From the sequence record MN850587.1: a DNA stretch of 64,000 nt, one strand, 5' to 3'. Made by a program: the position numbers and the translations under genes. Origin of the DNA: Escherichia phage mistaenkt. Positions 52,027 to 53,534 of the stretch are shown here, piece after piece (within the stretch, counting starts at the first letter, position 1; every line of letters starts with the position of its first letter). The notes under the pieces are model-generated. The model had not been told where the DNA came from. It saw only the letters and a list, made by a program, of their open reading frames with translations, and did not search any database.

Positions 52027-52211
52027 ATTAAATCATCTTTGCAGTAACCTACGCAAACCTTGCTAAAGGGTTTGTAGAGTCATTTCCTATTAAGCTAATC
52101 TAGAATCATGCTAAGGAAATTCATCGGCACTCATGGGACGACATTTAGCTCCATAAGTCACTGCAAAGAGGATTACCAGACCGTTGTTTATCTTAAGTGC
52201 TCCCATTACAC

Positions 52212-52250
52212 CAACACGCCGTAACGTGTGAAGGAATCGAACCTTCGCCT
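52212..52250 (-). pseudogene. Possible tRNA remnant: isolated T-arm-like hairpin (GAAGG-TTCGATT-CCTTC) with adjacent ACACG/CGTGT hairpin, no acceptor stem or CCA
   Basis: T-loop consensus present but no complementary 5' acceptor strand within 120 nt. Confidence 0.25.
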
Positions 52251-52449
52251 TTTCTTTACCAGAGAAATAGATTGTTTTATACTTGCTGTAAACGGTCTTC
52301 TGTAAATTTGTTGAGCCAGACCAAGTTTTAAATTATTCAAATTAATTGGCTTGAAATTTTTAAGTTTGCTTGCTGAATTTGGTCTTCTGCTCCTTTAAAG
52401 AATACTCGTAAGAACTCTTTAAGGGAGGGGCTAAAAAGCCCTCTCAAAT

Positions 52450-52526
52450 TTGGCGAGGTATGCGAGAATCGAACTCGCGGCTCAGGAGAGACAGTCCCGT
52501 ATTTTGCCCATCTAAACTAATACCCC
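52450..52526 (-). tRNA. tRNA-Asp (anticodon GUC)
   Basis: Acceptor GGGGTAT/ATACCTC, anticodon stem CGGGA/TCCTG with loop CTGTCTC, T-arm GCGAG-TTCGATT-CTCGC, CCA. Confidence 0.7.
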
Positions 52527-52532
52527 AAAAAT

Positions 52533-52961
52533 CTATGTACCATTTCTTAGGTACTTCTCTTTACGCCTTGCTGGGTTGTAGTGCTTGCGCCCTTCTGCGT
52601 TTTTAGCAAGTCTGCAAGGTTCACACCTACAACCTCTTCTATAACCAGACACTGTGCCATGTTTAATTGGTGTGTATTTCCTATCACCAATCTGGGCTGG
52701 CCTAGTTGCTTTTGAGTTACATTGTATGTGGCTGTAAGATATATTGTCAAGTGAGAAGAAAAGCTCTTTTGCATCCTCTTCATGTCTCCAAGGAACTTTA
52801 TGTTCTATAGAGAAATCAACTCTGGACATTTCTTTTCCACAATGGTGACACTTATTCTGTCCAGTTTTACAAACCAAATCAAAGAGTAAATCTTTAACAA
52901 GCCTGTTCTGGGCTGTTCCTAAGCTCATACCAAGTTGTGACTTGTAAACTTCATTCTTCAT
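52533..52961 (-). CDS. HNH homing endonuclease with C-terminal Cys-rich zinc-binding tail
   Basis: 142 aa; CHHCGK...DFSIEHKVPW...NISYSHIQCNS (HNH); C-terminal GCRCEPCR; inserted between tRNA genes. Confidence 0.7.
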   Translation of the reverse strand: MKNEVYKSQLGMSLGTAQNRLVKDLLFDLVCKTGQNKCHHCGKEMSRVDFSIEHKVPWRHEEDAKELFFSLDNISYSHIQCNSKATRPAQIGDRKYTPIKHGTVSGYRRGCRCEPCRLAKNAEGRKHYNPARRKEKYLRNGT

Positions 52962-52983
52962 AGTATCAACATCTTATTAAAAT

Positions 52984-53071
52984 TGGTGCGCCGTGAAGGA
53001 GTCGAACCTACCGAGTCATAATGACAAGTGATTTACAGTCACCACCGCTTCCATCTACGGGATAACGACGC
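52984..53071 (-). tRNA. tRNA-Tyr (anticodon GUA), type II
   Basis: Acceptor GCGTCGT/ACGGCGC, anticodon stem GGTGA/TCACT with loop CTGTAAA, long variable arm with GTCAT/ATGAC stem, T-loop TTCGACT, CCA. Confidence 0.75.
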
Positions 53072-53141
53072 ATTTTATTCTATTCAGGCTAAGGACTTGC
53101 ACCTTACAAATCGGTGAGCATTACGCTTCTCTCCCAAATCT

Positions 53142-53218
53142 TGGCGGTGAGTTAGGGATTCGAACCCTATACCATTCGGTTAACAGCCGACCGCACATGC
53201 CTTATGTGCTTCCTCACC
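53142..53218 (-). tRNA. tRNA-Asn (anticodon GUU)
   Basis: D-stem GCAC/GTGC, anticodon stem TCGG/CCGA with loop CTGTTAA, T-arm TAGGG-TTCGAAT-CCCTA, CCA. Confidence 0.7.
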
Positions 53219-53299
53219 ATGTTTAGTATTGCCAGACCGTATCTTTTCATTTTTTCCTATAAAAATTTTTAGATTGCTGTAAACGGTCTTCTGCAAATT

Positions 53300-53376
53300 T
53301 GGAGGCGGGTGCAGGAGTCGAACCTGCCGATACCATGCTAATGAGACATGTGAGACGCCCTTTCTCTATACCCGCG
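53300..53376 (-). tRNA. Second CAU-anticodon tRNA (Met; initiator or Ile-lysidine type not resolved)
   Basis: Anticodon stem CATGT/GCATG with loop CTCATTA, T-arm GCAGG-TTCGACT-CCTGC, CCA; position 1-72 mismatched in my fold. Confidence 0.65.
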
Positions 53377-53459
53377 AACTTTTATGACCAGACCAAACTT
53401 TTAAGTTTTCTATGCGCGAAAAGTAAAGTTGTTTGCTGTACTTGGTCTTCTGTCAAATT

Positions 53460-53534
53460 TGGAGTCGTAGACGGGATTCGAACCCGCGAGCAACTGATTG
53501 AAGGTCAGGTGGCTAACCATTTGCCTTCTACGAC
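53460..53534 (-). tRNA. tRNA-Glu (anticodon UUC)
   Basis: Perfect acceptor GTCGTAG/CTACGAC, anticodon loop CCTTCAA, T-arm GCGGG-TTCGAAT-CCCGT, CCA. Confidence 0.75.

Follow-up and report, generated by a model that had tools for sequence, protein, structure and literature searches.

Candidate Y-RNA-like genes in the tRNA island of Escherichia phage mistaenkt, probable RNA partners of a neighbouring Ro60-like protein

The stretch of Escherichia phage mistaenkt DNA considered here, 64,000 nucleotides (nt) of record MN850587.1 and referred to below as the window, carries an island of transfer RNA (tRNA) genes at 47417-53618, in which all 24 of the 24 tRNAs called by ARAGORN lie on the minus strand, and, immediately upstream of the array and on the same strand, a gene of 471 amino acids (aa; 53785-55200) whose product contains the Pfam domains DUF2828 and DUF7788 and is predicted to fold like Ro60. 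Between these tRNA genes, 330-3030 nt downstream of the Ro60-fold gene and all on the minus strand, lie four short elements of common design, called here units A (52173-52305), B (52313-52392), C (53229-53296) and D (53385-53455), which are probably genes of small non-coding RNAs of a Y-RNA-like kind and for which the adjacent Ro60-like protein is the proposed partner. The region 52000-53700 matches 290 phage records, mostly from Felixounavirus and its relatives at 80-99% identity, and the window is that of a Felix O1-like phage.

Four minus-strand tRNA genes frame units D and C in one array: tRNA-Pro (53542-53618), a Glu-like tRNA directly upstream of unit D (53463-53534) that is missed by ARAGORN and found by the Rfam tRNA model at 53.7 bits, tRNA-Met between units D and C (53300-53376), and tRNA-Asn (53142-53218). 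Unit D begins 4 nt past the CCA of the Glu-like tRNA and stops 8 nt short of tRNA-Met, and unit C begins 3 nt past the CCA of tRNA-Met and stops about 10 nt short of tRNA-Asn, so that these two copies do stand directly 3′ of minus-strand tRNA genes, as a first-pass annotation of this DNA had placed them; unit B has no tRNA directly upstream.

The same annotation had described an element recurring four times in plus-strand sense, with a 6-nt spacer, and had read it as a duplicated tRNA-flanking unit, such as a processing or termination signal copied together with tRNA genes, one copy of which would have lost its tRNA. The recurrence is real but the spacer is of 5 nt: as first written, TTGCTGNNNNNNGGTCTTCTG, the pattern finds none of the four sites (0/4) in the window, whereas the form TTGCTG-N5-GGTCTTCTG, that is TTGCTGNNNNNGGTCTTCTG, has four exact matches on the plus strand, at 52283, 52370 (previously given 4 nt early, as 52366), 53274 and 53433, all of them inside 52283-53452 and none elsewhere in the 64 kilobases (kb), where the sole further match at up to three mismatches is a 3-mismatch site at 2953. 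Since a pattern of 15 specified bases is expected, by simple arithmetic, about 1e-4 times per 128 kb of two-strand sequence, four exact copies in 1.2 kb are far beyond chance. Nor is the similarity confined to AAATTTGG beside the CCA ends, so that the outcome named with the first reading as its refutation does not occur. A second element, CCAGACC, which that annotation does not list and which is overrepresented in the window (14 copies vs 4.7 expected), stands beside the motif copies at 52176, 52316, 53232 and 53388 on the plus strand, and each of these four copies pairs with the motif copy that stands 61-126 nt away at higher coordinates.

What this annotation had seen are thus four paralogous units in a tRNA island, but not a flank signal travelling with tRNA genes: the motif is the 5′ half of a self-contained RNA whose 3′ half lies 61-126 nt downstream, units A and B have no tRNA immediately upstream, and the same signature stands beside DUF2828 genes in 26 loci free of tRNA within about 5 kb and in Mycobacterium phage LeBron. 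A termination signal does not fit either, in that no unit has a U tract after it and a scan for terminators picks out none of the four.

Read on the minus strand, the units of the window share the consensus 5′-NNNC-AGA-AGACC(R)N-N3-CAGCAA ... (Y)GGUCU-G-GNNN-3′, which corresponds to an outer helix of 4 base pairs (bp), an AGA/G internal loop, an inner helix of 7-8 bp (AGACC.../...GGUCU), 3 nt, a CAGCAA box, a variable interior and the complementary 3′ strand, the 3′ half of a unit being GGTCTGG followed by the complement of the outer 4 nt. Three of them would be short Y-like RNAs: unit D is TGAC-AGA-AGACCAA-gta-CAGCAA ... TTGGTCT-G-GTCA (48 bits, E 6e-11, with the covariance model R1 described below), unit C is TTGC-AGA-AGACCGT-tta-CAGCAA ... 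ACGGTCT-G-GCAA (50.8 bits, E 9e-12) and unit B is GAGC-AGA-AGACCAA-att-CAGCAA ... TTGGTCT-G-GCTC (38.9 bits, E 2e-8), and the interiors of these three form an A/U-rich hairpin. The fourth, unit A, would be a long YrlA-like RNA, in which the common closing helix and the CAGCAA box (52283-52288) enclose a permuted tRNA-like domain. The outer 4 bp are different in each copy and complementary in all (TGAC/GTCA, TTGC/GCAA, GAGC/GCTC, TTAC/GTAA), and pairs 6-7 of the inner helix switch jointly, being G-C/U-A in units A and C and A-U/A-U in units B and D. Single-sequence minimum free energy (MFE) folds give the closing helix with its AGA/G internal loop in 4/4 units, and the fold of unit C has a z-score of -3.3.

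Among the families of Rfam 15 only tRNA is matched at any of these sites; the scans give no Y RNA match at E<=1 or E<=10, and the bulged helix GGUCCGA/UUGACU of the Y RNA model RF00019 is absent from the units. The only non-tRNA near-match at a unit, Dicty_Class_I_RNA, scores 27.4 bits vs a gathering threshold of 41.5 and reflects the terminal stem alone. A promoter reading of the TTTACA inside the motif was set aside, as no consistent -10 partner is seen by eye among the copies and a promoter scan lists none at the units; likewise, for readings of the AGA/G loop as K-turn, hairpin-ribozyme, hammerhead or hepatitis delta virus (HDV)-like element, the GA/AG or catalytic-core motifs are absent by eye and Rfam gives nothing.

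Within unit A the order of elements is an anticodon-like arm, a 4-nt variable loop, the T arm, an acceptor-like (AS) hairpin, U8N9 and the D arm, all inside the terminal stem. The first of these, at 52251-52267 (-), is the hairpin TTTCT-CTGGTAA-AGAAA, which could also be a V (variable) hairpin, is aligned as anticodon arm by the Rfam tRNA model and is less conserved among relatives. The T arm, GAAGG-TTCGATT-CCTTC at 52230-52246 (-), is constant in all but one of 15 distinct sequences, the exception being a single mismatch. Directly 3′ of it stands the AS hairpin, ACACG-TTACGG-CGTGT at 52214-52229 (-), the stem of which reads ACACG/CGTGT in the window, ACTCG/CGAGT in the majority of relatives and ACCCTTC/GAAGGGT in Michonne, so that three pairs change on both sides with every cell still paired; and U8-G9 with the D arm, GTGT-AATGGGA-GCAC, occupy 52197-52213 (-), with A14, R15, G18, G19 and A21 in the D loop. 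In an alignment of 12 sequences 98.4% of the cells of unit A pair vs 43-50% with slid partners, all five helices are present in both the MFE and the centroid folds, and a custom scan for the order T-AS-D has unit A as its single match in the window.

This domain does not form a complete cloverleaf: ARAGORN makes no call, the acceptor-like arm and the D arm are placed 3′ to the T arm, and the Rfam tRNA model (RF00005) matches partially, at 52230-52283 (-), over model positions 9-63 only (31.3 bits). The isolated T-arm-like hairpin noted in the first-pass annotation is therefore a true hairpin, on the minus strand and tRNA-derived, but not the remnant of a lost tRNA, for behind the T arm come an acceptor-like hairpin, which covaries, and a D arm, and 28/28 relatives keep this order. 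Unit A is a permuted tRNA mimic of the YrlA type and not a decayed tRNA gene.

The search in related genomes that had been proposed with the first reading finds the units arranged in the same order, downstream of the same gene, in 28 loci of Felixounavirus, Suspvirus (SUSP1/2), Mooglevirus (Michonne) and PMBT20. Across these relatives the handle, as we call the conserved end with the closing helix, and the CAGCAA box are invariant, while the loops drift by indels of 1-5 nt, which break the reading frame and argue against the small 'hypothetical protein' open reading frames (ORFs) annotated there in some records. The closing helix covaries: among 12 distinct helix variants 93% of cells pair vs 21-46% with slid partners, and 6/12 pairs change on both sides, as in the orthologues of unit C, which alternate between TTGC/GCAA and TTAC/GTAA. 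The remaining variants indicate the strand. Those of unit B (GGGC/GCUC, GAGC/GUUC) and of unit D (AGACCGA/UUGGUCU, and AGGCCAA/UUGGUCU, which occurs in Michonne and keeps its pairing via G.U) pair as G.U when read on the minus strand and would give A.C mismatches if read on the plus strand, so that the RNA is read in the sense of the tRNAs.

The product of the upstream gene is annotated in some records as 'RNA-binding protein', 'vWFA protein' or 'Ro-like RNA binding protein'. Its AlphaFold2 model, built on an alignment of 81 sequences, reaches a predicted local distance difference test (pLDDT) score of 91.8 and a predicted template modelling (pTM) score of 0.90, the single-sequence model being unusable (pLDDT 41.5). 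When this model is compared with the PDB by Foldseek, the top 11 matches are all Ro60 (from Thermus phage phiLo, Xenopus, human and Deinococcus), aligned over the full length with E of 3e-8 to 1e-6 and with template modelling (TM) scores of 0.53-0.65 in ten and 0.36 in the Deinococcus entry (2nvo); below them there are only vWA domains, at E>1e-3. The predicted structure has a ring of HEAT repeats and a C-terminal vWA domain with the MIDAS motif (metal-ion-dependent adhesion site), whose DxSxS residues (D279, S281, S283) are invariant in the 81-sequence alignment. By this modelling the product of 53785-55200 has the Ro60 fold. As regards the TROVE domain, Pfam gives DUF2828 and DUF7788 only, and phmmer and a profile search of the PDB sequences find no Ro60. 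The DUF2828 family is large, with 2541 database matches and 709 phage records from hosts of many phyla.

A search starting from the single protein gave only close relatives; the association of units and gene was followed in a distant set of 75 loci (762 kb), in which the protein is about 38-48% identical to the query. There, the T-AS-D scan finds more permuted modules, all on the strand of the gene and none (0) overlapping an ARAGORN tRNA, and nearly all of them have [7-nt helix strand]-N3-CAGCAA ahead of them and, behind them, the complementary strand and G. A loose scan with a 6-bp helix, which gave about 50 matches in shuffled sequence, was replaced by a strict rule (7-bp helix, 3-nt spacer, CAGCAA, 3′ G) and by a covariance model. 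The strict rule gives 79 units on the gene's strand vs 5 on the opposite one, and 57 of the units it finds lie within 500 nt of the gene and none (0) inside it. The covariance model, R1, was built from 25 short distant units together with units B, C and D of the window, in which it detects the four units and nothing else; in the 75 distant loci its matches at E<=0.1 number 72, every one on the strand of the gene and many from outside the set it was built from, and units of this type mostly lie within 300 nt of the DUF2828 genes. The median distance to the gene is 153 nt for the units vs 2131 nt for the tRNAs (Mann-Whitney p 1.6e-26), and in 26 of the distant loci there are units and no tRNA.

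The linkage reaches phages of very different hosts. Among cultured phages, R1 matches occur in the gaps flanking the gene in Staphylococcus 6ec, Listeria LP-064, Campylobacter CPX, Klebsiella FBKp34 and Mycobacterium LeBron, the last of which has a pair of units directly behind the gene and, within 3 kb, no annotated tRNA, and there is a weak match in Vibrio phage ValKK3. In LP-064 (L108), an RtcB-like RNA ligase gene (5813-7024) lies downstream, at 1.3 kb from the DUF2828 gene with its three units, a layout that echoes the rsr-yrlBA-rtcBA arrangement of Salmonella. In FBKp34 (L104), an annotated tRNA-Asp of 114 nt (5003-5116) follows a normal tRNA-Asp, about 275 nt downstream of three units; its length is odd and could hide an intron or a fused element.

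The consensus of the family as a whole is A-[AG(G/A)NNNN]-N-U-(U/A)-CAGCAA-(interior, often A-rich on the 3′ side)-[N′N′N′N′(Y)CU]-G-(A/U), of which the AGACC.../...GGUCU-G of the window is the local form; what the Felix O1 clade adds to it is the AGA bulge and an outer helix of 4 bp. The interiors, which we call cargo, vary widely: some are plain hairpins, some permuted tRNA modules, and others tRNA bodies that have no acceptor stem or further conserved modules. Several permuted modules have stems of 7 bp and carry N-CCA at the start of the acceptor-like loop: Michonne, with GCCA (L102:3697-3752), L084:6843-6901 and 9527-9582, L058:6569-6624 and L096:38-99. An N-CCA in this position, an encoded discriminator with CCA, resembles the junction between two tandem copies of a single tRNA and suggests an origin from such copies. 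At L050:4734-4834 and L081:7520-7616 the body of a tRNA is kept in the ordinary order (D, anticodon and T arms) with the CAGCAA-box helix in the place of the acceptor stem, and the L081 copy is called a tRNA by Rfam at 55 bits. A different conserved module (…GAACCTTTCYGGAGGGGAAAGCAAAAACTCGCCAA…) stands inside the CAGCAA-box helix at L028:3133-3233, L029:149-281, L030:4276-4371, L032:1265-1374 and L049:4734-4829, which suggests a further class of cargo. There are also large forms of 160-230 nt with the common handle and interiors of the type …ATAATACTATGAA…GGAGC…GTTGAAG… (L068:4486-4642, L085:4479-4643, L092:1714-1878, L099:4458-4615, L100:1166-1332), along with the further large forms L030:3840-4065 and L032:628-834; they are possibly a distinct structured RNA on the common handle.

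The test was also made in reverse, by searching IMG/VR with the pattern AAGGATNNNTNCAGCAA-N25-55-ATCCTG, which gave at least 120 loci; the two free helix positions of the pattern pair in 107/131 instances. A DUF2828 gene is present in 31 of these at least 120 loci within the stretch available, on the same strand as the unit in 35/35 instances and at a median of 265 nt, and it is the commonest neighbouring protein family, homing endonucleases being the second. The gene is present in a larger fraction of loci the longer their flanks, 26% overall, 41% at >=2.5 kb on both sides and 58% at >=4 kb, and one 'gene-less' locus lies 6 kb further along a contig that bears the gene. As a control, the 22-kb tRNA island of T5 (25 tRNAs and several annotated stable RNAs) gives no R1 match, and T5 is not among the organisms of the DUF2828 tblastn matches listed. 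The linkage between units and DUF2828 is broad, tight and strong, without being absolute, as some units, like A and B of the window, are placed within tRNA arrays at several kb from the gene.

As for the surroundings of the units in the island, two more weak tRNA-like genes missed by ARAGORN are detected by Rfam at 52989-53069 (-), with 22.8 bits and annotated as tRNA-Tyr in relatives, and at 51094-51168 (-), with 23.6 bits against the tRNA-Sec model; from such genes, missed by the one program and detected by the other, it follows that the tRNA genes of the island number more than 24. A 142-aa ORF (52533-52961, -), placed between tRNA-Asp and the Tyr-like tRNA, has no Pfam match and is, by annotation at the same position in relatives, an HNH homing endonuclease. 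PC79-13, CHB7 and SUSP1/2, the closest relatives, match just 69% of 52000-53700, the HNH insert appearing absent or different there. A G+C-rich hairpin, GAGAGGGC-TTTTTA-GCCCCTC at 52425-52446 (-), stands 6 nt past tRNA-Asp and just ahead of unit B and has no U tract. Further along, at 51666-51850 (-), the permuted model of transfer-messenger RNA (tmRNA) gives a weak match (36.2 bits, gathering 47, E 1.4e-4), along with faint tmRNA matches; it sits in the 275-nt spacer between tRNA-Arg and tRNA-Ile, overlaps tRNA-Ile and may reflect mere tRNA likeness. On the other side of the array, the stop codon of the Ro60-like gene is followed by a 12-bp hairpin (53743-53774, -) and then, ahead of tRNA-Pro, by a promoter-like TTGACA-18-TAAAGT with an upstream TG (53645-53674, -). 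This site, of a kind that is not above chance in the region, may be the start of the transcript of tRNAs and units.

Among the systems to which the units can be compared, the bacterial YrlA and YrlB RNAs are the nearest in plan. The tRNA-like domain of YrlA has the order (V), T, acceptor-like stem-loop, D, inside a terminal stem, and Y-like RNAs have been reported for phages with a Ro60 of the TROVE type, namely mycobacteriophages, CcrColossus and Bacillus phage G (Chen et al., 2014, PMC4201824). Like YrlA and YrlB, the units lie on the same strand as a Ro60-type gene and within a few kb of it (inside the approximately 4 kb used for YrlA, the gene being Ro60-like by fold only), have a closing stem formed by the 5′ and 3′ ends that encloses the rest of the RNA, occur several to a locus, with unit A as the (V)-T-AS-D tRNA-like form and units B, C and D as simple hairpins in the manner of YrlB, and, in units A and C, show a YUAY-like UUAC after the stem. 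The N-CCA acceptor-like loops of the distant permuted modules also recall the YrlA of M. smegmatis, which is cleaved by RNase P and receives CCA. Unlike them, the units are interleaved with true tRNA genes and carry, in the Felix O1 clade, the AGA bulge and the outer helix; the protein is a DUF2828/DUF7788 protein with no detectable sequence similarity to TROVE; and the place of GNCGAAN0-1G near the 5′ end is taken by CAGCAA after a 7-bp helix and a 3-nt spacer, the nearest resemblance in the 5′ strands NNNC-AGA-AGACC being AGAAG vs CGAAG. The units fall outside YrlA proper, therefore, by the defining 5′ motif and by the sequence family of the partner.

Thermus phage phiLo, reported in 2025, in which the RNAs Yrl1 and Yrl2 accompany a phage Ro60 and the particle binds host PNPase (PMC12135203; PDB 9KOP, 9L5Y), resembles the window in that a phage protein of Ro60 fold has Y-like RNAs encoded beside it, 9l5y being the top structural match of the window protein. 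It differs in that the phiLo protein is a described Ro60 homolog (9KOP is titled 'Trove domain'), about 16% identical to the window protein in the structural alignment, and in that its RNAs carry CGAA, an RNA signature unrelated to that of the units. With the animal Y RNAs (RF00019) the units share a small size, a terminal stem that bears the protein site (a candidate site here), a large internal loop and several paralogues per genome, but not the GGUCCGA helix with its bulged C nor any Rfam match, and their phage origin and tRNA-like cargo set them apart. They are like the RNA I, III, IV, RNA1-3 and 'tRNA-like stable RNA' of T5 in being non-tRNA RNAs amid tRNA genes, presumably, from their position, on the same transcripts; the T5 RNAs, in contrast, are without a known protein partner and without R1 match, which holds for the annotated stable or tRNA-like stable RNAs at 6285-6645, 7809-7980, 8839-9084 and 9878-9950 of the T5 locus (L230). 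The species 1 and 2 RNAs of T4 are likewise stable non-tRNA RNAs in a tRNA island. Circularly permuted tRNA genes, for their part, are known in the red alga Cyanidioschyzon merolae. The permuted modules are like them in having the 3′ half ahead of the 5′ half and the acceptor ends joined by a loop, with N-CCA encoded in some distant members, and unlike them in that the break falls at the junction of the D and anticodon arms and is closed by the conserved handle.

On Felixounavirus there is a preprint (2024, PMC11482910), in which gp130 of Bas63 is described as Ro60-like in structure, encoded upstream of tRNA genes and able to counter the Ppl defence, and as rescuing T7 on its own on a host with that defence; it guesses that some of the tRNA genes may be Y RNAs and names no RNA. 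Full-text literature searches, the coverage of which is incomplete, so that an earlier description elsewhere is possible, found no description of RNAs associated with DUF2828, and the family of units appears to be undescribed, widespread and of a Y-RNA-like kind.

If the units are the RNA partners of the Ro60-like protein, as we think probable, the conserved handle, composed of the helix base (5′ A-AG.../...CU-G 3′), the fixed 3-nt spacer and the single-stranded CAGCAA, would be the likely site of protein binding. At 3-10 nt from tRNAs of the same strand, the units would most likely be co-transcribed with the array and released by the enzymes that process tRNAs: RNase P, acting on the 5′ end of the tRNA that follows, and the 3′ trimming of the tRNA before would free them. 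By analogy with the Ro60/Y RNA particles, the handle would then dock on the ring of the protein and the cargo would tether other factors, such as PNPase or tRNA-binding enzymes, the outcome being a phage particle for RNA surveillance, for repair or against defence.

Several findings weigh against this interpretation. The handle has neither the GNCGAAN0-1G of YrlA nor the GGUCCGA helix of animal Y RNAs, and the protein is joined to the TROVE Ro60 by its predicted fold and not by sequence searches. At the thresholds used, 26/75 distant DUF2828 loci have no unit, and 89/120 reverse-search loci have no DUF2828 gene in the stretch available, many stretches being short; those loci are rich in tRNAs, and some of their units are far from the gene or possibly without it. 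The pair counts of alignment A5 are circular, in that its units were chosen for a perfect helix, and its 100% pairing carries no weight. Finally, the help that gp130 alone gives to T7 on the Ppl host means that this activity needs no phage RNAs; gp130 would be the orthologue of the window protein, to judge from the genus Felixounavirus and from the position and fold described.

Of the other explanations, the one that survives best, though we hold it rather unlikely, is that the units punctuate tRNA arrays, as structured spacers that guide RNase E/III/P or stabilise the precursor independently of the Ro60-like protein, and that DUF2828 is near them through a shared location in tRNA clusters. 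The few nucleotides that separate units C and D from the tRNAs on either side are what such spacers would lead one to expect, as are the tRNAs in 86/120 reverse-search loci (mean 7.3 per locus), with DUF2828 in just 31 within the stretch available, and the action of gp130 against Ppl without phage RNAs. But punctuation of this sort would not bring the units far nearer to the gene than the tRNAs are, nor place them in the 26 loci without tRNA or in pairs in LeBron, nor would it leave the T5 island without any; it does not predict that DUF2828 should be the commonest neighbour in the reverse search, ahead of the homing endonucleases, and it has no need for a conserved single-stranded box or for cargo such as a permuted tRNA.

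That cargo would find its explanation if the RNAs were free-standing mimics or decoys of tRNA, acting on host factors such as defence nucleases or tRNA enzymes, with the handle there for stability only. Phage tRNA islands are thought to counter tRNA-directed defences, and unit A and many distant members have a tRNA-like part, some with an encoded N-CCA. This possibility seems to us less probable again, as units B, C and D and most short members have no tRNA-like part and yet keep the handle and the box most strictly, and as it leaves the same-strand adjacency to DUF2828 across phyla without explanation. We give very little credence to the view that the units are functionless, decayed duplicates of tRNA genes and their flanks, in spite of the partial tRNA match in unit A (52230-52283) and of the tandem-tRNA origin suggested by the N-CCA loops, given that the helices covary rather than decay, that the handle and box stay invariant in the 28 relatives while the loops drift, and that the design is found again where protein identity is about 40% and in phages of four bacterial phyla. 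Least probable of all is a reading of the units as miniature mobile elements bounded by terminal inverted repeats, or as sites tied to the homing endonucleases of the island, which the inverted-repeat arms (AGACC...GGTCT), the HNH gene between the units and the rank of homing endonucleases as second-commonest neighbours might bring to mind, since the arm sequences vary and remain complementary, as befits paired RNA strands and not a site shared by a transposase, target-site duplications are absent, the G.U variants fit one strand only, and order and position are fixed across relatives with or without the HNH insert.

Returning to the units as partners of the Ro60-like protein, a wider form of this proposal, to which we would give an even chance of being right, is that they belong to a large, undescribed modular RNA family found throughout phages, in which a common handle (7-bp helix, 3 nt, CAGCAA, 3′ CUG) would be read by DUF2828 proteins and would bear interchangeable cargo, be it permuted tRNAs, some of them with CCA, tRNA bodies without acceptor stem or other modules, to form ribonucleoproteins for RNA repair or surveillance or against defence, in phages whose hosts are Proteobacteria, Firmicutes, Actinobacteria and Campylobacterota.

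The regions of the units are at present unannotated, or mis-annotated as small hypothetical proteins or pseudo-tRNAs. Much work has been done on the Ro60/Y RNA particles of animals and of a few bacteria, while the far larger DUF2828 branch has no known RNA partner; now that there are candidate RNAs of exact coordinates, with a consensus and a covariance model that works, the question of this partner becomes directly testable. One protein handle that presents many RNA cargos, among them, as is suggested here, rearranged tRNAs, would bear on the biology of phage tRNAs and on anti-defence.

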